This document shows positions 12,252-36,004 of a DNA stretch of 36,398 nt, piece after piece. The position numbers and the translations under genes were made by a program. Numbering within the stretch: the stretch's first letter is position 1; every line of letters starts with the position of its first letter. The notes beneath the pieces are model-generated. The model made no database searches. It saw only the letters and a program-made list of their open reading frames with translations, and was not told the DNA's origin. The stretch lies in the UHGV virus genome UHGV-1395479; one strand, written 5' to 3'. The stretch comes from a virus.

Positions 12252-13277
12252 TTACGCCAGTTGAACGGACACGAACTCATCAGGATCAGCCAGCAGCATC
12301 AGCGGTGCTGACTGAATCATGGTGAACTCTCGCGCCGGATCGCCGGATGTCTTCCAGTTTTTCGGATAACGGGGAGACGCATTAATACCCTCACTCAATG
12401 CATCCGCATCCTGAATACAGCCATAGGTGCGCAGACCGCGTGCATGAGTGTTACCCAGCACCATCGTGTTGTCCGGCAGGAAGTTCTTTTTGACGCCGTT
12501 TTCCACGTACTGTCCGGAATACACGACGATGGCCACATCGCCATACATTCCCTTATAAGACACCGCTTTGCCCAGGTCTTTTACCGCTGTCTCCAGTTCG
12601 GAATGAGAGCCGCGACGGGTATCCAGCTTCTCCCTGACGGCTTTGAAGGAACGGAACAGCGCCCAGCCTTTCGGGTCAAACACGATGATATTCACCACAC
12701 CGCTGGCGTTCAGCGCGTAGGCTTCGATATCGTCGGTCGGGTCATACGTGGACTTGTCGCGCTTGCTCCACCCCGTGCTGCCGGACTGCGTGATGTTATT
12801 CGCTTCACTGCGACCCATATCCACCTCAACCGGATCGAAGGCTTCACCGGTCATGGTGTATTTGCCCTTAAGCACGGCAGAAACTGCCTGCATCTCTTCG
12901 ACCTGAGCAATGGCCAGCTCTTCGTCACGCATGTTCTGCATGATGATGCGACGGCGGCGGTAAGCCGGGTCCGCCAGATTCTGCGGATCTTCATCCGGCA
13001 GGCGACGCAGGGTCATCTGCGGATTCACTTCATGCTTCGGCTTGACATATCCCGGCGTAAATTCAGAGGTGGAGCCGCCACGGGAACGGATAACCTCACC
13101 GGAAACAATCGGCGAAACGTACAGCGCCATGTTTACCAGTCCCGGAATTTGTGAGAGATAGACTTTCTCCGTAGTGAAGGGATAGCTCTCACGGAAAAAG
13201 AGACGCAGAAACAGCGGATCAAACTTAAATTTCTGCTCATTTGCCGCCAGCAGCTGGGCGGTTGTGTACATCGACAT
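12252..13277 (-). CDS. E: Major capsid protein E
   Basis: Lambda gpE-like from MSMYTTAQLLAANEQKFKFDPLFLRLFFRESYPF...; start placed at 13277 (341 aa) rather than 13304. Confidence 0.95.
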   Translation of the reverse strand: MSMYTTAQLLAANEQKFKFDPLFLRLFFRESYPFTTEKVYLSQIPGLVNMALYVSPIVSGEVIRSRGGSTSEFTPGYVKPKHEVNPQMTLRRLPDEDPQNLADPAYRRRRIIMQNMRDEELAIAQVEEMQAVSAVLKGKYTMTGEAFDPVEVDMGRSEANNITQSGSTGWSKRDKSTYDPTDDIEAYALNASGVVNIIVFDPKGWALFRSFKAVREKLDTRRGSHSELETAVKDLGKAVSYKGMYGDVAIVVYSGQYVENGVKKNFLPDNTMVLGNTHARGLRTYGCIQDADALSEGINASPRYPKNWKTSGDPAREFTMIQSAPLMLLADPDEFVSVQLA

Positions 13278-13332
13278 AAAAAAATCCCGTAAAAAAAGCC
13301 GCACAGGCGGCCTTTAGTGATGAAGGGTCAGG

Positions 13333-18701: not shown

Positions 18702-19221
18702 TCAGCAACCCCGGTATCAGTTCATCCAGCGCGGCTGCTTTGTTCATGGCTTTGATGATATCCCGTTTCAGGAAATCAACATGTCGGTTTTCCAGTTCCG
18801 GAAAACGCCGCTGCACCGACAGGGGGATCCCGTCGAGAATACTGGCAATTTCACCTGCGATCCGCGACAGCACGAAAGTACAGAATGCGGTTTCCACCAC
18901 TTCAGCGGAGTCTCTGGCATTCTTCAGTTCCTGTGCGTCGGCCTGCGCACGCGTAAGTCGATGGCGTTCGTACTCAATAGTCCCTGGCTGGAGATCTGCC
19001 TCGCTGGACTGCCGCAGTTCTTCAACCTCCCGGCGCAGCTTTTCGTTCTCAATTTCAGCATCCCTTTCGGCATACCATTTTATGACGGCGGCAGAGTCAT
19101 AAAGCACCTCATTACCCTTGCCACCGCCTCGCAGAACGGGCATTCCCTGTTCCTGCCAGTTCTGAATGGTACGGATACTCGCACCGAAAATGTCAGCCAG
19201 CTGCTTTTTGTTGACTTCCAT
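18676..19221 (-). CDS. Nu1: Terminase small subunit Nu1
   Basis: 181 aa, MEVNKKQLADIFGASIRTIQNWQEQGMPV... matches lambda gpNu1 (N-terminal HTH). Confidence 0.95.
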
Positions 19222-19398
19222 TGTTCATTCCACGGCCAAAAACAGAGAAAGGAAACGACAAAGGCCCAAAAGTTCGTTTTCAGCACCTGTCGTTTCCTTT
19301 CTTTTCAGGGGGTATTTTAAATAAAAACATTAAGTTACGACGAAGAAGAACGGAAACGCCTTAAACCGGAAAATTTTCATAAATAGCGAAAACCCGCG
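19222..19398. promoter_or_regulatory. cosB-like region (terminase small-subunit binding sites)
   Basis: Reverse complement of 19222-19410 is near-identical to the first ~190 nt of the lambda genome as recalled (GGGCGGCGACCTCGCGGGTTTTCGCTATTTATGAAAATTTTCCGG...). Confidence 0.7.
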
Positions 19399-19410
19399 AG
19401 GTCGCCGCCC
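19399..19410. other. cos: cosN cohesive-end site (12-nt overhang sequence GGGCGGCGACCT on minus strand)
   Basis: Plus strand AGGTCGCCGCCC at 19399-19410 is the exact reverse complement of the lambda cohesive end; located immediately upstream of Nu1. Confidence 0.9.
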
Positions 19411-19845
19411 CGTAGCCTGCCGGATTGCCGGAAAGGACCCGTCAGCCGTTCTGGTCGACTTCGTAATGGGATTTAATAGCTGAACGACAAAAGTCGTGCG
19501 ACCACGGTTGCACAGACCTGAATACACGTCCTGTTTCTTCCACCCCCGCACAGGACTGGCGAGTATGAGGGACAAACCCGCGAATCATAAACGCGGTAAA
19601 AACCCGGTGTGCATCGTTTTTGATTATTCCCGCACACTCGCGCAGAAGGAATTCCCCGTCGGGCTACGGTCATGGTTAATGCGGGAATACGGCGACGATA
19701 CAGCGCATAATGTGTCAGGCTTGAATACCTTTATCGAATCCCGGTAACGAATTCTCCTGACGTTCCAGTCAGGTGATGATATGCATGGTGAGATTCAGAT
19801 ATGAAAAAGCCCCACTAAAAGCGAGGCCATAAATCACTTAATATC

Positions 19846-20220
19846 TTATTGAGGACGCTGGAGTAATCCGTGCTGAGCGAGAGTTAGAGCAATGTCATAA
19901 GACCCTTGCCTGTCTTTATAGCAAGTTTTATCAACTAGCTCAGCTTTGCTAATTCCGGGTAAATCAAGAATCAGATTCGCAACTTCAATTGCCCTTTGGT
20001 ACAACTTACCGATCTTTTTCTCCCCATGATGTGGTTTTACATTCTTCAGATAACCGCTATCCGCCAGAGCGAGAAACGTTGCCCTTGGGCATCCCTTCTT
20101 TCTTGCCGATTCGCTTTCTGTAACCTCAGCGACAGCAGCCTCCCATGCATCACGAGGAGACATTGAGTTATGAGCAACCAATTGATAAGCATTTAAAGCG
20201 GCTTGAGCGTATTGAGACAT
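19846..20220 (-). CDS. Hypothetical protein (moron between Rz and cos)
   Basis: ORF 19846-20271; start preferred at internal ATG 20220 (MSQYAQAALNAYQLVAHNSM..., 125 aa); AT-richer than flanking DNA by eye; no motif recognised. Confidence 0.5.
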   Translation of the reverse strand: MSQYAQAALNAYQLVAHNSMSPRDAWEAAVAEVTESESARKKGCPRATFLALADSGYLKNVKPHHGEKKIGKLYQRAIEVANLILDLPGISKAELVDKTCYKDRQGSYDIALTLAQHGLLQRPQ

Positions 20221-20258
20221 AATGCATCCATATACAAAAATCTTATGATAAGACTTTT

Positions 20259-20702
20259 CTAATATGAACACTGTGATCTCACATACTCTTGCAGACCATT
20301 CAATTGGTTAGTTACGGTTTCGATGCGCTCTCTGAGAACGAAATAATCCCGTTGAGCGGTGTCAGTAAGTCTGGGGCTGGCACCATCATCCACGCCGGAG
20401 GCGGCGGTGGTTTTATGCATGTCCTGACAGACTGCTTTGACGCGCAGCCACTTACGACCAGCAAAAACATCAGCACGTAGACTTTCGATAGTCGCGTTAG
20501 CATCAGCAAGCTCCTTTGTGTATCTGGCGTCGAGTTCTGCTACATCACGTTGACGCTTCTGCATGTCAGCGATAGTAGATGCGGCTTTGTCGCGCTGCTC
20601 TTTGTAGGCGATGGCGTTATCACGGTAATGATTAACAGCCCATGACAGGCAGACGATGATGCAGATAACCAGAGCGGAGATAATCGCGGTTACTCTGCTC
20701 AT
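20259..20702 (-). CDS. Rz: Spanin, inner-membrane subunit Rz
   Basis: [31 protein letters not shown]... matches lambda Rz (N-terminal TM, coiled coil); directly downstream of R. Confidence 0.9.
20312..20509 (-). CDS. Rz1: Spanin, outer-membrane lipoprotein subunit Rz1 (embedded in Rz in +1 frame)
   Basis: Embedded ORF with lipobox-like LLVVSGCAS and polyproline KPPPPPAW motif as in lambda Rz1. Confidence 0.85.
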
Positions 20703-21175
20703 ACCTCAATCTCTCTGACCGTTCCGCCAGCTTCTTTGAATTTTGCAATCAGGCTGTCAGCCTTATGCTCGAACTGACCATAACCAGCGCCCGGCAGTGA
20801 AGCCCAGATATTGCTGCAACGGTCAATTGCCTGACGAATATCACCGCGATCAATCATCGGTAAAGCGCCACGCTCCTTAATCTGTTGCAATGCCACAGCG
20901 TCCTGACTTTTCGGAGAGAAGTCTTTCAGAGCAAGCTGCTTACGGTAAGCATCCCACCAGCGTGAAAGAAGCTGATAACGTCCGGCGGCTGTTGATTTTA
21001 GTTTTGGGTTTAGTGTGACAAGTTTGCGAGGGTGATCGGAGTAATCAGTAAACAGTTCACCACCGACAATAACATCATAACCGTGGTTACGTGTCGGTTG
21101 TCGCCCGTTATCCGTTCCTTCTGACCATGCAACCATATCCAGGAAAGCTTTACGCTGGGAATTTAGTACCTGCAT
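20699..21175 (-). CDS. R: Endolysin R (lytic transglycosylase)
   Basis: 158 aa, ..[49 protein letters not shown]... matches lambda R. Confidence 0.95.
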
Positions 21176-21178
21176 AAA

Positions 21179-21514
21179 TTACTCCTTCGAGCTACCAAAC
21201 TTGTTACCGATTACTCTCATTGCAGCCCCACGAATAGCATCGACACCGATCAGCCCCACCCCACCACCAATGGCAACAGAAAGCGATTTAGGCCATCCGA
21301 CATACTCAAGCGCGGATGCAAAGGTCAACGTCAGAGCGCCACATAGCAAAATCTCGAGCGTTTTTCGCTTCCAGCCACCACCACCGCCAAAATAGGCGAT
21401 GCGCAAACCAGCCATAACAATCGACATAATCACTGCGCCCAGCGGCGTATCTCCACGCCACCAGCTCTGAAACAACTCCAGCCAGTCCGGCCAAGTATTT
21501 GGGTTATGAGGCAT
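21179..21514 (-). CDS. Putative holin (three predicted TM segments; not lambda S-like)
   Basis: Immediately upstream of endolysin; three hydrophobic stretches (LGAVIMSIVMAGLRIAYF, TLEILLCGALTLTFASALEYVGW, SLSVAIGGGVGLIGV) and charged C-terminus; start ambiguous between 21574 and internal ATG at 21514. Confidence 0.6.
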   Translation of the reverse strand: MPHNPNTWPDWLELFQSWWRGDTPLGAVIMSIVMAGLRIAYFGGGGGWKRKTLEILLCGALTLTFASALEYVGWPKSLSVAIGGGVGLIGVDAIRGAAMRVIGNKFGSSKE

Positions 21515-21591
21515 TTCGTCATCTCTCACCTCGCGATATTTGCGGGTGCTGTGTAATGGAAATAAAAAGGCCACCTGACGTGGCCACCAGA

Positions 21592-22644
21592 TTATTTCCC
21601 CACCAGCTCGTTTATCTCTTTCACTGTCTGGTTAAACCGCTCTGACTCAAGCTCAACACCTAAGGCCCGACGCCCCAGCGCCATTGCTGCTTTTATTGTG
21701 GAACCGGATCCCATAAAGAAATCAGCAACCAGATCGCCTTGTCGACTACTGGCACTGATTATTTGCCGGAGCATATCCGCAGGCTTCTCACACGGATGTT
21801 TACCCGGGTAGAACTGAACGGGTTTATGCGTCCAGACGTCGGTATAAGGCACGGAAACTGATACGGAGAAATAGCGCCGGAGAGTTTTAAACTCATCCAG
21901 CAATTCAGAATATTTGCGATTCAGTGAATCATAAGATGCCACCAGCTGGTGGTGTGGTTGTTCCAGTTGTTGTTCCTGAAATTTCTCTGCCGCTATACGG
22001 GAAAACAGTGCCTGCAACTTCCGGTAGTCAGCCTCATTCGGCAACTGCCACTGACTGGCACCAAACCAGTGGGAAACCATATTTTTCTTACCAGTGGCTT
22101 CGGCAATCTGTTTTGCCGTTATACCCAGTTCGGCACGAGCATCCCTGAAATACGAAATCAGCGGTGCCATTATGTGCTGTTTGAGTTCCCTTTCTTTTGC
22201 CGCATAATCGTCACTTTTGCCGCGATATGGCCCCTGGTAATGTTCAGCAAACAGAACGCGCTCTGTAGCGGGGAAATATGCCCGCAGGCTTTCTTTATTA
22301 CACCCGTTCCATCGTCCGGACGGCTTCGCCCAGATGATATGGTTAAGAACGTTGAAACGTTCACGCATCATGATCTCGATATCAGATGCCAGGCGATGTC
22401 CACAGAACAGGTAAAGGCTTCCGGCTGGTTTCAGTACCCGCCAGAACTGGGCCAGACAGTGGTCCAGCCACTTCAGGTAATCTTCGTCCCCTTTCCACTG
22501 ATTGTCCCAGCCGTTGGGCTTCACTTTGAAGTACGGCGGATCGGTAACAATCAGATCAATGGAGTCATCAGGCAGGGACTGAATAAAATGCAGGCAATCA
22601 GCGTTGATTAAATCAACACTGTTTATTTTTACAGTATTCTTCAT
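21592..22644 (-). CDS. Orphan DNA methyltransferase (amino-MTase, N6-adenine or N4-cytosine; DPPY then FxGxG order)
   Basis: 350 aa; N-terminal motif IV LIVTDPPY and C-terminal motif I FFMGSGST (beta-type motif order); no adjacent restriction enzyme gene; sits in late operon upstream of holin. Confidence 0.8.
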   Translation of the reverse strand: MKNTVKINSVDLINADCLHFIQSLPDDSIDLIVTDPPYFKVKPNGWDNQWKGDEDYLKWLDHCLAQFWRVLKPAGSLYLFCGHRLASDIEIMMRERFNVLNHIIWAKPSGRWNGCNKESLRAYFPATERVLFAEHYQGPYRGKSDDYAAKERELKQHIMAPLISYFRDARAELGITAKQIAEATGKKNMVSHWFGASQWQLPNEADYRKLQALFSRIAAEKFQEQQLEQPHHQLVASYDSLNRKYSELLDEFKTLRRYFSVSVSVPYTDVWTHKPVQFYPGKHPCEKPADMLRQIISASSRQGDLVADFFMGSGSTIKAAMALGRRALGVELESERFNQTVKEINELVGK

Positions 22645-22793
22645 GGATCAGTAAGCGTAACTCTGGTAGGCTCACTCTGCTTTTGCGCTAAAGCAGTGGG
22701 CCATGGTTCGCTTGTGACCAGTAAGCATGAGCGAATGGCTGGCAGGTGCTACCAACACCCACCAGCCGCCCATTTTCACAAATTAAAAGCCCT

Positions 22794-22988
22794 TCATTGC
22801 TGAAGGCGTCTGTAACAGCCGAACTGGTAATCTGCCAGCCCCGCCATAACCAGCTGGGTCAGTATTAACTGACAGCGTTCGCGTGAAAGGTATGTGTTTT
22901 GTGCTATCTCCCCGACTGTTGCCGGTTTGCCGTTTAATTCATTAAAAACAACTTTCGCCGTTTCTGTCATATCTTGCTGTTTTAGCAT
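22794..22988 (-). CDS. Small hypothetical protein (64 aa), possibly winged-helix-like
   Basis: ORF with AAGG-type SD upstream; sequence ..ATVGEIAQNTYLSRERCQLILTQLVMAGL.. resembles small HTH proteins; no confident family. Confidence 0.35.
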   Translation of the reverse strand: MLKQQDMTETAKVVFNELNGKPATVGEIAQNTYLSRERCQLILTQLVMAGLADYQFGCYRRLQQ

Positions 22989-23111
22989 GTCTTTTTACCT
23001 TCATGGTTAACATGACATACCAATAACTCTTGTCTAAAAAGCCAGCAAGATAAAAAGTCAGTATTCACGACCACCAGCGTGTTTACCGTACTGCACCAGG
23101 TTTACAGGTAT

Positions 23112-23137
23112 AAAAAAACCCGCTCGACGGCGGGTTT
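23112..23137 (-). terminator. Rho-independent terminator (minus strand), candidate tR'-like or early-operon terminator
   Basis: GC-rich hairpin CCCGC..GCGGG (23119-23134) preceded on plus strand by A7 (23112-23118), i.e. followed by U7 on the minus-strand transcript. Confidence 0.65.
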
Positions 23138-23258
23138 AAGCTGTGTGACGAAGTAATCACTCTTAACACAGTAACGCAATTTTTGCGGACCGCGATAATG
23201 TTTTTTACACCAAAAAAAGGTATTTTATGGAAAAAAATCAAGACATAGCGAGCAAAGA

Positions 23259-24128
23259 GTGACTAAAACAACTTCTTTTCAGATCTTCTACGATGCAGAG
23301 GATAATGAATTAGCACAGCATAAAATTGATGCCAAAACATTAAGCATTTCCATAGGTTCGATGGCAGATTTAATATCAGCAGCTGATAAAAGACTTAATG
23401 ACGGCCAACAAACCGTTAAGTTAATGGTTACTAATCCAGCTGAAGCGGGATCACTCGGCGTATCCTATACGATGATGGAGCTTGTTCCTCATGCCGTCGA
23501 CGTAGCAAAAGTGATTGGCCTAACAGGGATAGCCGGGGCTACTATTGGAGCTCCAGCATTATCACTAATCCGCCAACTGGGCAGCAAGAAAGTAATTTCG
23601 GTAACAAAACGGGCAGGAACAGAAGAATCTGTTCTTGAGCTTGAAGGGGAAGAAATTGTTTGCCATGACTCAGTGGCTAAGTTAGTAACAGATCCAGAAG
23701 TCCGTGATGCCCTTGTGAATGTAGTTCGTGCACCATTAGACGGCAAACAAGGAGCAGTATTTAAGGTGCTGAATGATGAAGGCGAAGAAGTCGTTCGTCT
23801 TGAAGGAAGTGAAACCGAAGAGATCAAACCGCTGCCTAGAGGCACACTACTTGAAAAAGAAGAGTCTGTAGAAGAAGTCAATGTTAGATTCGTACAGATC
23901 AACTTCGAGGGTACAAAGGGTTGGAGAATCGATTATTTAGGCGAAGAGCATGCTGTTACCTTTGAAGATCAGTTGTTTATACACCAAGTTCAAAACGGAA
24001 TCATCAGTTTTACAAAAGAAGATTTGTTTGTTGTTGAGCTAAAAACTATAAAAACTTTCACTGCGCGAAATGCCACAACCAAGTATGCTATAACCAAAGT
24101 AAAACGAAAACGCCCTGCTGAGGCTTGA
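23259..24128 (+). CDS. Hypothetical protein A of an opposite-strand three-gene moron operon (289 aa)
   Basis: GTG start at 23259; long ORF on plus strand amid minus-strand phage genes; AT-rich; acidic, with one hydrophobic Gly-rich stretch (VIGLTGIAGATIGAPALSLI); no catalytic motif recognised. Confidence 0.7.
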   Translation: MTKTTSFQIFYDAEDNELAQHKIDAKTLSISIGSMADLISAADKRLNDGQQTVKLMVTNPAEAGSLGVSYTMMELVPHAVDVAKVIGLTGIAGATIGAPALSLIRQLGSKKVISVTKRAGTEESVLELEGEEIVCHDSVAKLVTDPEVRDALVNVVRAPLDGKQGAVFKVLNDEGEEVVRLEGSETEEIKPLPRGTLLEKEESVEEVNVRFVQINFEGTKGWRIDYLGEEHAVTFEDQLFIHQVQNGIISFTKEDLFVVELKTIKTFTARNATTKYAITKVKRKRPAEA

Positions 24129-24394
24129 CAAAAGTGACACTAAACATGCAGATAGCACAACTGATCTTCTGGATAGGGGTGATAATGATCATCCCTGCCT
24201 TTAGTCGTTTTTGCTATTCAGCGTCAGCCTTGCTTTGGCGTCGACTATTCCCTACAAAAGTCTTCGAATTCCGATATCACGATGAAGATTCCGGAGTGAC
24301 CAAAACGCTAGTAATAAAAGTTCCAAGTAAAAAGGGAAAAATGCTAACAACCCTCATTGATGAGGCAATTGCGGAGAATTCAAAACGAAAATGA
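24125..24394 (+). CDS. Small membrane protein B of the three-gene operon (up to 89 aa, one predicted TM)
   Basis: Start overlaps stop of A (TTG 24125; alternative GTG 24134 or ATG 24146); hydrophobic stretch IAQLIFWIGVIMIIPAF; stop overlaps start of C. Confidence 0.6.
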   Translation: MTKVTLNMQIAQLIFWIGVIMIIPAFSRFCYSASALLWRRLFPTKVFEFRYHDEDSGVTKTLVIKVPSKKGKMLTTLIDEAIAENSKRK

Positions 24395-24813
24395 ATTCTC
24401 AAACTAAAGGTCTAAGCACAGGAAAAGCTACCCTTTCAACTGGTGGTTGGGGAGCAATTTTAAGTGTTCTTGTTAGCGCGATTTTAACCGACCCTAATAG
24501 CGTGTGGCGAACTGTAGCCTACGCATTAGTACCGGGTGTTGCGGCAACTTTAACTTACGTCATGAATTGGTTCATTTCGAGGCATGGTTTCGAATCTCCA
24601 GAAGACGCAGCCAAAAGAGCAAAATGCAAGCGTGATTTGGCTGAGATTGAGAAGCAGTTACGATCTGACCACTTAAGTCCTGAAATAAAATCAACATTGA
24701 TGCAGGCTAAAGCAAGAACAATCGAAATTTTGGTATCAATCGGAAGGGAATCTATACTTGAAACATCTGCGCGTAACATTACACCATCAAAAACTGCCGA
24801 TCCGCAAAGCTGA
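24391..24813 (+). CDS. Membrane protein C of the three-gene operon (140 aa, two predicted TM segments)
   Basis: ATGA start/stop overlap with B at 24391-24394; hydrophobic segments GGWGAILSVLVSAILT and VAYALVPGVAATLTYVMNWFI; charged helical C-terminus. Confidence 0.7.
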   Translation: MNSQTKGLSTGKATLSTGGWGAILSVLVSAILTDPNSVWRTVAYALVPGVAATLTYVMNWFISRHGFESPEDAAKRAKCKRDLAEIEKQLRSDHLSPEIKSTLMQAKARTIEILVSIGRESILETSARNITPSKTADPQS

Positions 24814-24836
24814 GCGGCAGTTGCTATTCTGGTAGT

Positions 24837-25217
24837 CTATTGGTCCATTTCCAAACAAAGATCAAGCATTGAGAGACAGCCTTCAATAAACCCCTCAGCC
24901 ATCTGTATCTCAATGCGTATTAGTTTCTCATCCTTTTTACGAGCTTTGGCGAGCTTTCTTTTAGAGATACCGTATAGGTAATGGGCAACAAGAAGCGAAT
25001 GTTCGTCTGGCCTTTTTTGCTTTAGACGAGCAAGACAACCTTCAATAATTAATGCATCACTATCTGAACAAGCCTGACGTGTTTTGCTTGTATAGGGAAG
25101 AAGTCCCTTAAACCCAGCAGCTATAGGCGAATAGTCTACTCCTGAACTGTCACTCGCCGCCCATGCACCCCAACGTTCAAGAACCATTTGAATATCACGC
25201 ATCAACTTTCTCCACAA
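24837..25217 (-). CDS. Q: Late-gene antiterminator Q (small QuuD/phage 82-type family)
   Basis: 126 aa; MRDIQMVLERWGAWAA... resembles my recollection of DLP12 QuuD; last gene of early-right operon, upstream of lysis cassette. Confidence 0.75.
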   Translation of the reverse strand: MWRKLMRDIQMVLERWGAWAASDSSGVDYSPIAAGFKGLLPYTSKTRQACSDSDALIIEGCLARLKQKRPDEHSLLVAHYLYGISKRKLAKARKKDEKLIRIEIQMAEGFIEGCLSMLDLCLEMDQ

Positions 25218-25219
25218 AA

Positions 25220-26215
25220 TCAGGCCAGCACGCCTATTGCCAGCGCACGATCGATAAAACGAAATATCAGCTCCAACTGGGAGCCATACTTCTCTTCAAA
25301 TGCCACGGTATCCGCATGCAGCTCGTCGTGATGCTTTCTGCACAAAGGCAACACAAAGAGGTCATGCGCTTTTGTACCCATTCCACCCTGACCGTGGCCT
25401 ATCAGGTGGTGGGGATCATCAGCAGGCTTTCCACAACATGCACACGGCTGTGTCTTAACCCAGCGCGTGTACTTTTCATTAACCCAGCGGCGGCGTTTTG
25501 GGCGTAACATAAAAGACTCCGGCGACTCCGGATCCACTTTCAGCGCCAGCACCTTTTTCGCTTTATCCTGGATGATGCTGGTGGCAGGAACCGAAGGCAC
25601 AAGGTCACTTTCCCGGGTGACAGACGGCACAACAGGCTTCGGTAATCTCAGTGCCTTACGGGCTGCACTTTCCGGTAAGGCATCCGCCAGGTCATTACGA
25701 ATCAGCCACCAGCACAGTTCCGGCATTGTCACAACGTGACTGTCATCAAAACCGAGATCCCGACGCACAACAGACAACACCCAGCGGGCACAGTTATCCG
25801 TTGCCATTGATTCCAGCCGTTCCGTGAACTGATCGCGCAGCTGGTTATCGCAGTGCCAGCACAGACGGATTGCACCCGGAGCGTGTCGCATTGTGGTCAT
25901 GTTCTCGCTGTGCCAGTCGGAATGAGGCCACTGGCAGCCTTTTTCACGAAGTAACCAGCTTTCAAGACATTCCACGCCACCAGCACGACGGATCACTGCC
26001 TCATTGCGGAACACGGCCCGAACGGCAGGATCATCCGCCAGCGGTTGTGATGCCGCCGGAACGGCACCACTGGCGAAAGATGAATAACGTTCCGGCTCAG
26101 GCTCCAGCAGGACACGCCCCTGCATAAACAGGGGCATCAGCTCTGAACCTGGTCTGAACAATACGATCCCCATACGCGGGGCAATTTCAGGGGTCAGTAG
26201 TGCTCTCACGGTCAC
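25220..26215 (-). CDS. DUF968-like protein with C-terminal HNH-like Cys/His motif
   Basis: 331 aa; C-terminal CACCGKPADDPHHLIGHGQGG...CRKHHDELH cluster; position in nin-like region upstream of Q; family call from memory. Confidence 0.45.
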   Translation of the reverse strand: MTVRALLTPEIAPRMGIVLFRPGSELMPLFMQGRVLLEPEPERYSSFASGAVPAASQPLADDPAVRAVFRNEAVIRRAGGVECLESWLLREKGCQWPHSDWHSENMTTMRHAPGAIRLCWHCDNQLRDQFTERLESMATDNCARWVLSVVRRDLGFDDSHVVTMPELCWWLIRNDLADALPESAARKALRLPKPVVPSVTRESDLVPSVPATSIIQDKAKKVLALKVDPESPESFMLRPKRRRWVNEKYTRWVKTQPCACCGKPADDPHHLIGHGQGGMGTKAHDLFVLPLCRKHHDELHADTVAFEEKYGSQLELIFRFIDRALAIGVLA

Positions 26216-26216
26216 C

Positions 26217-27014
26217 TCAATGAACGGTATCGAGCAGCTTTAACAGCTCAGGGAATCGGGATTCGAAGAAGTGCGGCTGCGTCTCGCGCGGATTTGCAGG
26301 ACTGGTGATGTTCTTGCCGAACATGCAGCCTTTCGCCGTCAGCGACCAGAATTTTTTGATGTTGTTAATCGCGGTACGGCTGTATCGTTCGCGCTGCTCG
26401 ACGATCCCCAGCTTCACCATCTGGTGATATGCCTGATTAGCCGTCAGGCGGATACCATACTGTTTCAGCAGTGCACTCAGCGACAGCGTGGGGCGACTTG
26501 AGCCATCAGGCGCGTCAGCAGGAGCATCAATGGCATAGCGCGGTGCCAGATTCGGTAAGCCAACAGCCTCCTGGAGTTTCTGACAGGCACCAAGCACAGA
26601 TGAGTTAGACAGGTTTAACTCCCGACGCATAAAGTCCAGCAGGATCACGCCAGCCTGCATCTTGTCAGCAGCCTGTCCTGATAATTTTTCCGGTGCGCTG
26701 GTTACCATATCGAAAGTACGGATCACCTTCAGATGGAATGACGGGCTGATCCACATTGCATAGGCATACACCAGTTCCTTGCAGACATACGTTCCCTGGT
26801 TATTTCCACCTCGAATGACATTTACTGGCGCTATATTGACCGAGTTGCAAATCTGCAACTCGCTTATTAAACGTTCAGTTTGCTCATTGCGGAGCCAGAA
26901 TGCAGGCTTATGCTTATCCAGAGAACCGGCAGCCCTGTGCAGATCGTTCAGGCTGTAACGACCATAAGCATCACGACGAACTTCAATACCATCAATAACC
27001 ATCAGATTACTCAT
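26217..27014 (-). CDS. KilA-N domain protein
   Basis: 265 aa; N-terminal ..IDGIEVRRDAYGRYSLNDLHRAAGSLDKHKPAFWLRNEQTERLI.. resembles KilA-N DNA-binding domain. Confidence 0.5.
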   Translation of the reverse strand: MSNLMVIDGIEVRRDAYGRYSLNDLHRAAGSLDKHKPAFWLRNEQTERLISELQICNSVNIAPVNVIRGGNNQGTYVCKELVYAYAMWISPSFHLKVIRTFDMVTSAPEKLSGQAADKMQAGVILLDFMRRELNLSNSSVLGACQKLQEAVGLPNLAPRYAIDAPADAPDGSSRPTLSLSALLKQYGIRLTANQAYHQMVKLGIVEQRERYSRTAINNIKKFWSLTAKGCMFGKNITSPANPRETQPHFFESRFPELLKLLDTVH

Positions 27015-34043: not shown

Positions 34044-35154
34044 AAATAATGTTTCAGTCCCGAACTTGTATCCGCTTTATAGCAGAAAAGTAAATAAAGT
34101 CTATTGGCGATATAAACATCCAGTGACCGGGAAGTTTCATTCTTTAGGCACAAACGAAGCTGAAGCCATTGCTATTGCCACTGAGGCAAATTCACGCCTG
34201 GCTGAGCAAAGAACCCGGCAGATTCTGGCTATCAGTGACAGGATCGCAACCAGCAAAGGAAAAGCAATCACAACGTCAACCTGGTTAGATCGCTATCAAG
34301 CAATCCAGGATGACAGACTGGAAAGTGGCGATATAAAGCTCAACACCTATAAACAGAAAGCCAAACCAGTATCCTTGCTCAGGGAACGAGCAGGAATGAA
34401 ATTAATTTCATCAGTTGATGTAAGGGATATAGCACAATTGCTTGACGAGTATATCACTGCCGGGCAACCGAGGATGGCGCAAGTAGTCCGCTCCGTTCTA
34501 ATTGATGTATTCAAGGAGGCACAACACTATGGGGAAGTCCCTCCGGGCTATAATCCTGCACTGGCAACCAAACAACCCAGAAGAAAAATTACCCGACAAC
34601 GGTTAAATCTTGAAGAGTGGCAAAAAATCTTTGATATTGCAGATGCCAGTCATCGTTATATGGGGAATGCCATGCTGTTAGCACTGGTTACCGGCCAACG
34701 GTTAGGTGATATCTCACGTATGAAATTTAGCGATATTTGGGATGATCATCTTCACGTCATCCAGGAAAAAACCGGGAGCAAAATCGCCATCCCGCTTTCT
34801 CTGCGCCTCAATGCGATTAACTGGAGTTTGCGCGATGTAGTAGCCCGTTGCCGTGACTATGCTGTCAGCCCATACCTTGTACATTTTTTTCGTACTACTT
34901 CACAGGCTGAACGCGGCGCACAGGTTAAAGCCAATACCTTGACTATGAATTTCAGTAAAGCAAGAGATTTAGCAGGAATTGATTGGGGGAAAGGTTCACC
35001 TGCCACATTCCATGAACAACGGTCTTTATCTGAACGTCTGTACAAAGAACAGGGGATCGATACTAGAAAGCTACTGGGCCATAAAACCCAGCAGCAAACA
35101 GATCGCTACCATGATGACCGAGGGAAAGATTGGAGTAAAATAGCTATAATTTGA
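34024..35154 (+). CDS. int: Tyrosine integrase (lambda Int family)
   Basis: 376 aa; lambda Int-like throughout, including ..FHEQRSLSERLY.. and catalytic-Tyr region LLGHKTQQQTDRYHDDRGKDW. Confidence 0.95.
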   Translation: MAARPRKNNVSVPNLYPLYSRKVNKVYWRYKHPVTGKFHSLGTNEAEAIAIATEANSRLAEQRTRQILAISDRIATSKGKAITTSTWLDRYQAIQDDRLESGDIKLNTYKQKAKPVSLLRERAGMKLISSVDVRDIAQLLDEYITAGQPRMAQVVRSVLIDVFKEAQHYGEVPPGYNPALATKQPRRKITRQRLNLEEWQKIFDIADASHRYMGNAMLLALVTGQRLGDISRMKFSDIWDDHLHVIQEKTGSKIAIPLSLRLNAINWSLRDVVARCRDYAVSPYLVHFFRTTSQAERGAQVKANTLTMNFSKARDLAGIDWGKGSPATFHEQRSLSERLYKEQGIDTRKLLGHKTQQQTDRYHDDRGKDWSKIAII

Positions 35155-36004
35155 CTCTTGTAGGATCCATATCATCAGGAATAGAAATGCTATCACAAAA
35201 AAAGATTACTTCTGGCCCTTGGTACCTAGATTGAGCACTATAGCTGATACCGTACTCAATTTTTCTAAGACCAGTGTACATGTTGTTTATTTCAACAGTA
35301 TTATCGTAAGATACAATCCATGGATGCTTTGAATTAGATTTTATAATATTAGCAATTTCGACATGATCATCATGACTATAATGGTTTTGATACAAGCCCT
35401 TTCCTTTAACATAATATGGAGGGTCAAGATAAAGCAATGTTTTTAATGGGAATCCAGTTACAGTATTTTGCAAGAATGATTTAGCATCTTGGTTATAGAT
35501 ACAAATATCAGATTTACGGTCTGCTATTACCTTAATACGGTTTACTAAATCAACCTTATTAAATCGAGCATCTATTTTCCATTTTCCATTTTGTTCCTTA
35601 CCACCAATTACACCACCTAACAAAATTCCTGACCGATTTGTTCGATTAAGGAAAAACGTAGCGAATCCAACTTCCAATGAGGAATAATCACATTGATTAC
35701 TAATGATATTTTTATTCTTATACCATTCATCCATATTCACAGGGGTTTTTTCAATTAATTGGCAAAACTGATCAGTTTCTTCTAGAATTGACCGCCAAAA
35801 ACAAAAAATGGCGTTATTAAGATCGTTTAAATGTATACGTGATGCTTTCCCAGACAAAAGTAAATTAATGGCTACTCCAGCACCACCAGCATACGGCTCA
35901 ACATATTCGCAACCATCTAAACCATTGATCATAATGATCTTTGATAGATAGTTAGTTAATTTACCTTTACCACCAGGATACCGTAATGGGGTGCTGAATC
36001 TCAT
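35144..36004 (-). CDS. Dam-like (D12 class) N6-adenine DNA methyltransferase
   Basis: 286 aa; N-terminal motif I VEPYAGGAGVAINLL and C-terminal LYLDPPYY; very AT-rich; its stop overlaps the int stop (convergent). Confidence 0.8.
   Translation of the reverse strand: MRFSTPLRYPGGKGKLTNYLSKIIMINGLDGCEYVEPYAGGAGVAINLLLSGKASRIHLNDLNNAIFCFWRSILEETDQFCQLIEKTPVNMDEWYKNKNIISNQCDYSSLEVGFATFFLNRTNRSGILLGGVIGGKEQNGKWKIDARFNKVDLVNRIKVIADRKSDICIYNQDAKSFLQNTVTGFPLKTLLYLDPPYYVKGKGLYQNHYSHDDHVEIANIIKSNSKHPWIVSYDNTVEINNMYTGLRKIEYGISYSAQSRYQGPEVIFFCDSISIPDDMDPTRVKL

Follow-up and report, generated by a model that had tools for sequence, protein, structure and literature searches.

A solitary M.EcoGII-family adenine methyltransferase in the late operon of a lambdoid prophage and the structured RNA leader that precedes it

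The M.EcoGII family and the methyltransferase of UHGV-1395479

M.EcoGII, from a prophage of Escherichia coli O104:H4 C227-11 (GenBank EGT69837.1; twin, M.EcoGI), methylates adenine in any context, with dA modified to as much as 99% in vitro and 86% in vivo, and its methylation blocks 12 six-cutter and six four-cutter restriction enzymes (PMC5778455). The gene was not expressed in the lysogen, and clones expressing it constitutively grew slowly and were unstable (PMC5778455). Anti-restriction is the published interpretation of the enzyme (PMC5778455, discussion; PMC12707154), and the searched literature gave no explanation of how such an enzyme is silenced in the lysogen and released late. A related gene was identified in the virus genome UHGV-1395479, of which the whole stretch of 36,398 nucleotides (nt) analyzed is referred to as the window. 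It encodes a 350-amino-acid (aa) beta-class N6-adenine methyltransferase (MTase) at positions 21592-22644 (minus strand, as are all coordinates below unless stated) and is preceded by a structured RNA leader. Taken together, the analysis favors, at a probability of roughly three in four, a solitary M.EcoGII-family enzyme of a lambdoid prophage whose expression would be late, guarded, and anti-restrictive in effect.

Two further members of the family are the synthetic reconstructed ancestors Anc291 and SUPREM (Anc284), which are active and dimeric (PMC11551740) and, in common with M.EcoGII, non-site-specific in experiments (PMC5778455; PMC11551740); SUPREM has E179 and higher RNA activity. The closest characterized site-specific relative is M.PflMI (CCANNNNNTGG), a member of a restriction-modification (R-M) system with ~27% identity to M.EcoGII (PMC11551740). 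It shares the beta-class fold and a similar type of target recognition domain (TRD) with the window MTase but lacks the charged interdomain linker that the window MTase has (PMC11551740). A toxic modification enzyme that is silent in the lysogen is also encoded by mom of phage Mu (PMC12707154).

The MTase gene is the only open reading frame (ORF) listed at its coordinates and starts with ATG. A preceding sequence-only reading had described LIVTDPPY near the N-terminus and FFMGSGST near the C-terminus, an arrangement borne out by the ORF list, the translation, and the PF01555 profile. The catalytic motif IV occupies residues 31-38 (22531-22554; sequence context DSIDLIVTDPPYFKVK) and the S-adenosylmethionine (SAM)-binding motif I residues 309-316 (21697-21720; sequence context DLVADFFMGSGSTIKAA), including DPPY at 35-38 and FxGxG (FMGSG) at 310-314 with the TRD in between. 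Motif IV is thus N-terminal to motif I, which is the beta-class order. Residues D35, P36, P37, Y38, F309, F310, G312, S313, G314, S315, and T316 were invariant across 20 family members. PF01555 (N6_N4_Mtase) matched residues 29-341 over profile positions 1-220 of 221 at a level well past chance (E=8e-42, 144.1 bits, cut-off 26.7), PADLOC identified an MTase_II (E=2e-151), and the RefSeq record of the protein is WP_104778333.1, ‘DNA-methyltransferase’. Solved relatives (9c3u/8urk, M.RsrI, M.MboIIA, and CcrM) aligned at residues ~9-115 and ~281-347 only, marking the ~170 unmatched residues, by this comparison, as a family-specific insert. With boundaries taken from the M.EcoGII model (PMC11551740), a predicted helical TRD region spans residues ~160-237 (21934-22167) between charged linkers at 135-159 and 238-260. 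An AlphaFold2 (AF2) model built with 20 close homologues placed helices at residues 146-223 and 238-255, between the Rossmann halves, with moderate confidence (pLDDT 64.6) and in agreement with the published layout.

The published M.EcoGII sequence was available from Table S1 of PMC11551740 in a machine-read form with optical character recognition (OCR) errors (HH for HI, an extra R, and THKPV as TKVP), so that its real identity to the window MTase lies a little over the 81% obtained for the full-length, collinear alignment with two 1-residue gaps. A database protein 90% identical to the machine-read sequence was 83% identical to the window MTase without gaps. The two enzymes (349 and 350 aa) share the order of motifs, a prophage location without a restriction gene, the sequence layout of TRD and charged linkers, and the residues of the dimer interface (12/14 the same at 97-110 and 24/25 at 116-140, one mismatch being an OCR error). 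They differ by ~65 substitutions, mostly in the linkers and TRD: identity was 89% in the N-terminal Rossmann half, 77% in the C-terminal half, 77% in the TRD, and 68-70% in the linkers. The charged linkers separating M.EcoGII from M.PflMI were present in the window MTase, as were the M.EcoGII-clade states P43, G45, and Q179.

Identity to the reconstructed ancestors was 89% for Anc291 and 70% for SUPREM/Anc284. A distance-based neighbour-joining tree of 22 sequences placed the window MTase beside Anc291 in a subclade with the enzymes of phages cdtI, mEp460, and SfV, the sister subclade holding M.EcoGII and those of Stx phages, and SUPREM basal in the other major clade; by sequence, the window MTase is therefore bracketed by enzymes of non-specific phenotype. 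These comparisons confirmed, at the level of sequence, that the window gene encodes an M.EcoGII-family beta-class amino-methyltransferase, and the connection to M.EcoGII drawn in the sequence-only reading proved to be a genuine family relationship. From its relatives, the window MTase itself would be expected to be non-specific.

Searches with tblastn identified genes with 97-99% identity in the cultured phages cdtI, Ayreon, mEp460, SfV (orf48), and several ECOR-derived phages, and with 81-85% identity in Stx2-converting phages, phiP27, and Citrobacter phage phiNP. Thousands of family members spread over the Enterobacterales were found in a collection of 5.8 billion proteins. These included proteins P0006, P0049, and P0114, in which a 98-99% identical MTase part was fused to Rz (PF03245), PF26078/PF26079, or Ail/Lom-type outer-membrane domains and which are probably deletion or frameshift products or gene-calling artefacts. 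The window enzyme is itself a further prophage copy of a well-characterized and commercially used family, to which it adds little.

The orphan status of the gene also withstood a homology search of the flanks and the whole window. Scanning the accessory ORFs with Pfam, NCBIfam, PADLOC, and PHROGs revealed no restriction endonuclease, and none is listed in the RefSeq annotation of a chromosome segment of E. coli EC190486 (NZ_CP143092) that is 100% identical to window positions 19000-26300 and forms part of a lambdoid prophage integrated next to icd. The immediate neighbours of the MTase are a 64-aa winged-helix-like ORF and the holin, not the adjacent nuclease of a Type II R-M system.

A covarying RNA leader ahead of the methyltransferase gene

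A structured RNA leader (22645-22786) abuts the MTase start codon, and its existence and covarying fold were established by alignment, covariation, and a covariance model. Viral-contig relatives of the MTase were all at least 98% identical and of no use for covariation, and species-representative genomes were scanned instead. This gave 80 loci with MTase identities of 62-92%, ranging from Escherichia to Providencia, Yersinia, Photorhabdus, and Xenorhabdus; 78 of the loci had upstream sequence. The spacer was kept in 58 of these 78 loci at 72-93% nucleotide identity, both flanking genes being less conserved, and was near-invariant in the phage alignment even where the small ORFs shared just 52% identity.

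The fold obtained with RNAalifold and manual inspection comprises the long-range helix P1 (22770-22772 with 22697-22699), the 12-bp hairpin P2 (22737-22767), hairpin P3 with 10 positions and an internal loop (22707-22735), hairpin P4 (22677-22696), and a short candidate helix P5 (22700-22703 with 22668-22671). The last is well paired with little covariation and either clashes with a 5-bp P1 or makes a pseudoknot with a 3-bp P1. Compensatory changes included GCUGGUGGGUG...CACCUGCCAGC in the window becoming ACUGUAAAGGUG...CACCCUUACAGU in Providencia and GCAGAAGAGUG...CACUGCUUCUGC in Yersinia. In the MAFFT alignment, 83% of cells were paired compared to 28-49% with partners slid, 17 pairs had changed on both sides compared to 6-8, and covariation as strong as that observed arose in 0 of 500 shuffles. 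The covariance-model alignment, which is biased towards the model, gave 21/30 pairs changed on both sides (7-9 in controls) and 101 cells with two-sided change (17-34 in controls).

The position of the leader was equally constant. The covariance model identified a single copy per locus with its 3' end at the MTase ATG every time, the one match in the window being at 22642-22786 (159 bits). Among 80 viral contigs with an exact 21-mer of the leader, the MTase start lay 130-133 nt downstream in 76 of the 78 testable copies. The other two (L183 and L221) retained the first ~55 nt (P2) only, followed by unrelated AT-rich DNA replacing the remainder of the leader and the MTase; these truncated remnants were the sole cases of the leader away from an MTase start. 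A leader variant was present in 1,057 of 5,426 complete E. coli genomes (~19%), where no RNA feature was annotated at it. The leader was also found, together with the small ORF, with the nearest relatives of M.EcoGII in the set, from E. albertii (95%) and an Stx2d phage (92%), and its presence in both major enzyme clades across the Enterobacterales suggests that it is as old as the enzyme family.

Rfam 15 gave no match at gathering score in the whole window and none at E<=5 for the leader within 21450-23350, the nearest sub-threshold matches falling on a tR'-like hairpin upstream and not on the leader, so that a known RNA was rejected as its identity. The leader was also unmentioned in large structured-RNA surveys, in papers on prophage small RNAs (sRNAs) of enterohaemorrhagic and enteropathogenic E. 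coli (EHEC/EPEC), and in a full-text search of its sequence.

The leader belongs to a conserved cassette consisting of a Q-specific leader and terminator, the 64-aa ORF, a terminator, the ~130-nt structured RNA, the MTase, a terminator, and the holin. The small ORF and the RNA leader are members that the sequence-only reading had missed. The small ORF (22794-22988) matched phrog_331 (E=6e-35) and weakly TrmB, and is named ‘TrmB family transcriptional regulator’ in some records. Its place was ~150 nt 5' of the MTase in each of the 55 phage records holding it, and it was detected in 53 of the 78 species-representative loci. The RNA leader occurred without a detectable small-ORF homologue in 22 loci, and 17 Xenorhabdus/Photorhabdus loci kept the small ORF without a detectable full leader, showing that the two are separable. 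In the latter genera the MTase was ~64% identical to that of the window, the winged-helix ORF was kept, and the spacer measured ~95-100 nt. Its 5' part (GAAAUGG... and a P2-like hairpin) was retained, P3 and P4 were gone, and the covariance-model match was not significant; this spacer may be a reduced or alternative leader.

No canonical Shine-Dalgarno sequence precedes the MTase start, and the conserved CUGAUCYAUG could pair with GGAUCA near the 16S rRNA 3' end. The ribosome-binding site (RBS) region CGCUUACUGAUC (22646-22657), followed by C and AUG, is complementary to the P3 3' strand (22709-22719). In the minimum free energy fold of the window leader with the start (z=-4.3), the P3 3' strand GGUCACAAGCG pairs with this region rather than with the P3 5' strand. 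The alternative helix was kept across clades, including Providencia/Morganella, in which the tail is wholly different and GGUUUCCCUGAUC pairs with GAUCACGGAC. In a duplex test the mean energy was -10.7 kcal/mol with the own partner, -8.3 with the tails of other clades, and -5.5 +/- 2.3 with shuffled tails, the own-partner duplex being better in 39/44 comparisons. On the alignment the anti-RBS helix was 87% paired compared to 20-45% with partners slid, and 5/10 pairs had changed on both sides.

A pair of conserved helices that exclude each other, one of them hiding the RBS, has the anatomy expected of a translational switch. With its covarying fold, its fixed position before the gene, and these exclusive helices, the leader is probably a cis-regulatory RNA. 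Support for the RBS helix is moderate, and a translational switch is plausible. Two findings weigh against the switch: the anti-RBS helix covaries less than P2 and P3, its covarying-pair count being reached in 59 of 500 shuffles, and it is built partly from invariant GAUC-containing sequence. It is quite possible, though we would not call it likely, that the leader represents an undescribed class of cis-regulatory RNA gating the translation of toxic, indiscriminate M.EcoGII-type MTases.

The spacer could alternatively act other than as an RNA switch, namely as a short coding sequence, a DNA operator for the winged-helix ORF, or a processed trans-acting sRNA, which we regard as unlikely. A coding role has in its favor an invariant ATG opening a 33-codon ORF in the window, but this frame stops after seven codons in 18/46 cases and is otherwise variable, and spacer substitutions by codon position (319/294/298) had no codon periodicity; a coding spacer was consequently rejected. 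An operator would suit the winged-helix ORF that usually adjoins the spacer, but the compensatory changes at 21/30 pairs indicate a folded single strand and not a duplex, and the leader is kept in the loci that lack the small ORF. Trans-acting sRNAs are known from prophage late regions (PMC4104026), but the leader never occurs apart from the MTase start bar the two truncated remnants; it may nevertheless have an additional trans-acting role beside a cis function.

Other RNAs from this neighbourhood were compared with the leader. The lambda 6S and StxS-type pR'-tR' transcripts, IsrK, AsxR, AgvB, and Pas sRNAs share a location in the moron region downstream of Q. The MTase leader differs from them in being ~130 nt long with a multi-helix junction, running in the sense direction, and abutting a start codon. 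AsxR and AgvB are convergent sRNAs of 51-60 nt downstream of moron genes (PMC4104026), and the Pas sRNA paper does not mention methylases; all three were rejected as the identity of the leader, being different objects.

If the leader is a switch, the three-way junction P1/P2/P3 could serve as a sensor, with the P3 3' strand doubling as the anti-RBS strand. Candidate inputs include a metabolite such as SAM or S-adenosylhomocysteine (a true riboswitch), the 64-aa winged-helix protein by analogy with Com and mom, the MTase itself through autoregulation, and the co-transcriptional kinetics of Q-modified polymerase. The com-mom operon of phage Mu is expressed late and has an ORF of ~60 aa ahead of the modification gene and an mRNA structure hiding the translation start; Mom differs in not being a SAM methyltransferase, and the RNA-binding Com is a zinc-finger protein. 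The likeness to the MTase cassette is a regulatory analogy only, with zero homology, and the small ORF of the window is by contrast winged-helix-like and dispensable for retention of the leader. A strict Com/mom-like dependence of the leader on the 64-aa ORF was set aside as weakened by the 22 ORF-less and 17 leader-reduced loci.

Three terminators and a structured leader with an RBS-occluding alternative helix suggest a testable answer to how an enzyme of this kind is silenced in the lysogen and released late, and the leader may help account for the silence of native M.EcoGII loci. Should the leader turn out to be a switch responsive to a ligand or protein, it would constitute a new class of regulatory RNA with a wide distribution among Enterobacterales prophages and might serve to keep toxic genes under tight control.

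Late-operon setting, proposed mechanism, and rival readings

The minus-strand genes of the window run from a DUF968/HNH-like nin gene (25220-26215; phrog_96 E=3e-177, HNHc_6 E=4e-6) and the antiterminator Q (24837-25217; PF06530 family, Pfam E=4e-53, RefSeq annotation) through the late leader with its terminator, the 64-aa ORF, and the MTase. They continue to the lambda-family holin S (21179-21514; TIGR01594 E=9e-37), endolysin R (20699-21175), and Rz (20259-20702; PF03245 E=1e-40), all three with RefSeq annotations. A DUF6979 gene, the small and large terminase genes, and head and tail genes follow 3' of Rz. The gap between MTase and holin is 77 nt. The late-operon place directly 5' of the holin that the sequence-only reading had assigned to the gene was upheld, the order Q, leader, small ORF, MTase, S, R, Rz being the same in cultured phages. 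The cassette was also present in cdtI, mEp460, Ayreon, SfV, phiP27, 1720a-02, and Stx2 phages, with the MTase of the Stx2 phages between Q and stx2AB.

Three terminator-like hairpins were identified by a terminator scan. The first and strong one (23116-23137), a candidate tR', lies in a late leader segment (22989-23208) with homology to Q-proximal DNA of Stx2 phages, 1720a-02, and cdtI. The second, with a U-run (22791-22806), marks the end of the small ORF and lies immediately ahead of the RNA leader, and GC-rich hairpins occupy the matching position in most Enterobacteriaceae loci. The third, GGCCACGUCAGGUGGCC then UUUUUAUUU (21569-21585), precedes the holin and begins 6 nt past the MTase stop, where phage Ayreon has an annotated terminator. 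In Stx2 phages and 1720a-02, which encode a Q that is 74-75% identical to that of the window, a ~220-nt homologue of window 23208->22989 begins ~18 nt on from Q and is followed by the small ORF, the MTase, tRNAs, stx2AB, and later the holin. Phage 1720a-02 had been reported to carry an MTase very similar to M.EcoGII (PMC5778455). The DNA 5' of the hairpin at 23116-23137 was common to phages with the window-type Q and different in Ayreon and mEp460, whose Q is another one, and the DNA 3' of it was common to all phages compared. Such a pattern would be expected of a Q-specific promoter/qut region with tR' behind it, and the part of segment 22989-23208 that is 5' of the hairpin is a candidate pR'/qut region. 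A sub-threshold Rfam similarity at 23113-23186, on the tR'-like hairpin, to isrK (17 bits against a gathering score of 50), Trp_leader, and anti-hemB (E 0.1-1.2) was not significant, though it would suit a short, terminated transcript of the late leader.

The proposed mechanism begins with an MTase gene that, lying downstream of Q and the terminators, would be silent in the lysogen. On induction, Q-modified RNA polymerase would start at the late promoter and pass the terminator at 23116-23137, then the small ORF with its hairpin, then the RNA leader and the MTase with its hairpin, on the way to the lysis and morphogenesis genes. The MTase, probably a homodimer, would then methylate adenines of the phage DNA as it replicates, showing little if any preference for sequence. 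The packaged genomes would thereby resist, in the next host, those Type I, II, and III restriction enzymes that are blocked by adenine methylation. Since indiscriminate methylation harms the cell, expression would seemingly be guarded at two levels: three terminators passable only for antiterminated polymerase and a structured 5' leader with an RBS-occluding helix competing with P3. Late, Q-dependent expression is well supported as a prediction by anatomy and synteny. The suggestion of the sequence-only reading that the enzyme serves anti-restriction late or on induction agrees with the published view of M.EcoGII and fits the terminator-flanked site downstream of Q; for the window gene, we infer the anti-restriction benefit by that likeness.

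Several points weigh against this reading. The 19% of residues that differ from M.EcoGII cluster in the TRD and linkers, where specificity would be set. The AF2 model reached a pLDDT of 64.6 only. A sigma-70 scan of the minus strand at 23138-23208 found no good match to a late promoter. Q and the late leader segment are separated in the window by a 1.6-kb antisense module, which, as Q directly precedes the segment in Stx2 phages and 1720a-02, is an insertion between the two. Hypermethylated DNA would also be a target for Type IV enzymes dependent on N6-methyladenine. For M.EcoGII, too, the anti-restriction benefit is not known to have been demonstrated directly in phage crosses.

A site-specific or relaxed-specificity orphan adenine MTase, protecting against a subset of restriction systems or acting as an epigenetic regulator, appears quite unlikely. 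The specificity of MTases can shift through few substitutions, and the divergence from M.EcoGII peaks in the TRD and linkers (68-77% identity). Many family members are also named ‘site-specific DNA-methyltransferase’ in RefSeq/NCBI, but this is a generic pipeline label. The window MTase is moreover bracketed by the non-site-specific M.EcoGII, Anc291, and SUPREM, and its nearest site-specific relative is the ~27% identical M.PflMI without the charged linker (PMC11551740).

Very unlikely is a non-specific MTase with a main role other than anti-restriction, such as late host reprogramming or shut-down via global adenine methylation of DNA and RNA, or the marking of phage DNA for replication, packaging, or self/non-self discrimination. 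The substrates of M.EcoGII include single-stranded DNA, RNA, and DNA:RNA hybrids (PMC5778455; PMC7544214), but its activity on RNA is ~100-fold below that on DNA (Table S3, PMC11551740). Expression harms cells (PMC5778455) and prophages keep the gene in about one fifth of complete E. coli genomes, yet reviews class M.EcoGII-type enzymes as anti-restriction (PMC12707154). A place and timing just before lysis and packaging likewise suit the modification of exported DNA, as the anti-restriction reading has it.

That the MTase is the modification half of an unrecognized restriction or defence system is hardly credible: the DUF968 protein does match HNH endonuclease families and the LAPAL protein of the antisense module the PADLOC candidate defence family PDC-S42 (E=8e-33), but neither adjoins the MTase or is co-oriented with it as an operon partner, the cassette has other or no inserts there in Ayreon, mEp460, Stx2 phages, and cdtI, DUF968 (ydfU), which we take to be a general lambdoid nin-region gene as in the Qin prophage, stands next to Q whatever lies downstream, and a non-specific MTase could not provide self/non-self discrimination for a sequence-specific nuclease. 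Both candidates were rejected as partners.

Antisense module and other prophage genes

The module between Q and the late leader segment (23259-24813, plus strand; 1.6 kb, 42% GC) holds three genes, encoding a 289-aa LAPAL-motif protein and two small, membrane-looking proteins of 89 and 140 aa with overlapping stop and start codons. In addition to PDC-S42, the LAPAL protein matched NCBIfam NF053583 (E=1e-59) and phrog_3243. The module is possibly a defence moron expressed from the prophage and convergent with late transcription. Phage cdtI carries a different antisense two-gene insert at the same post-Q site (locus positions 1055-2443) and Stx2 phages have none, and the junction just past the Q stop (window 24790-24836) appears to be a hotspot at which antisense cargo inserts. 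A stretch of 24 nt separates the Q stop from the end of the insert and includes a hairpin and then a U-run.

The only other MTase in the window is a D12-class, Dam-like enzyme at 35144-36004, ~12.5 kb away, which matched PD-Lambda-5_B (E=2e-121) and lies in a stretch of 35% GC between the prophage integrase and icd that runs past the window end. In EC190486 the neighbour of this gene is a 1.7-kb AAA-ATPase gene, mostly beyond the window, and the prophage edge looks like it carries a complete PD-lambda-5 defence pair.

The DUF6979 gene (19846-20271; phrog_5039) belongs to the late operon, between Rz and the small terminase. The EC190486 prophage (NZ_CP143092, 2208-14278) differs by an ~11-kb element within the major capsid gene, which is left as two pseudogene halves. 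The cargo of the element includes an integrase, a TIR-domain protein, a primase, an Icd-like gene, its own capsid, decoration, and small-terminase genes, and an Abi gene, in which it resembles phage satellites. The capsid ORF of the window (12252-13304) is intact, and the strain from which the window derives was thus without this insertion.

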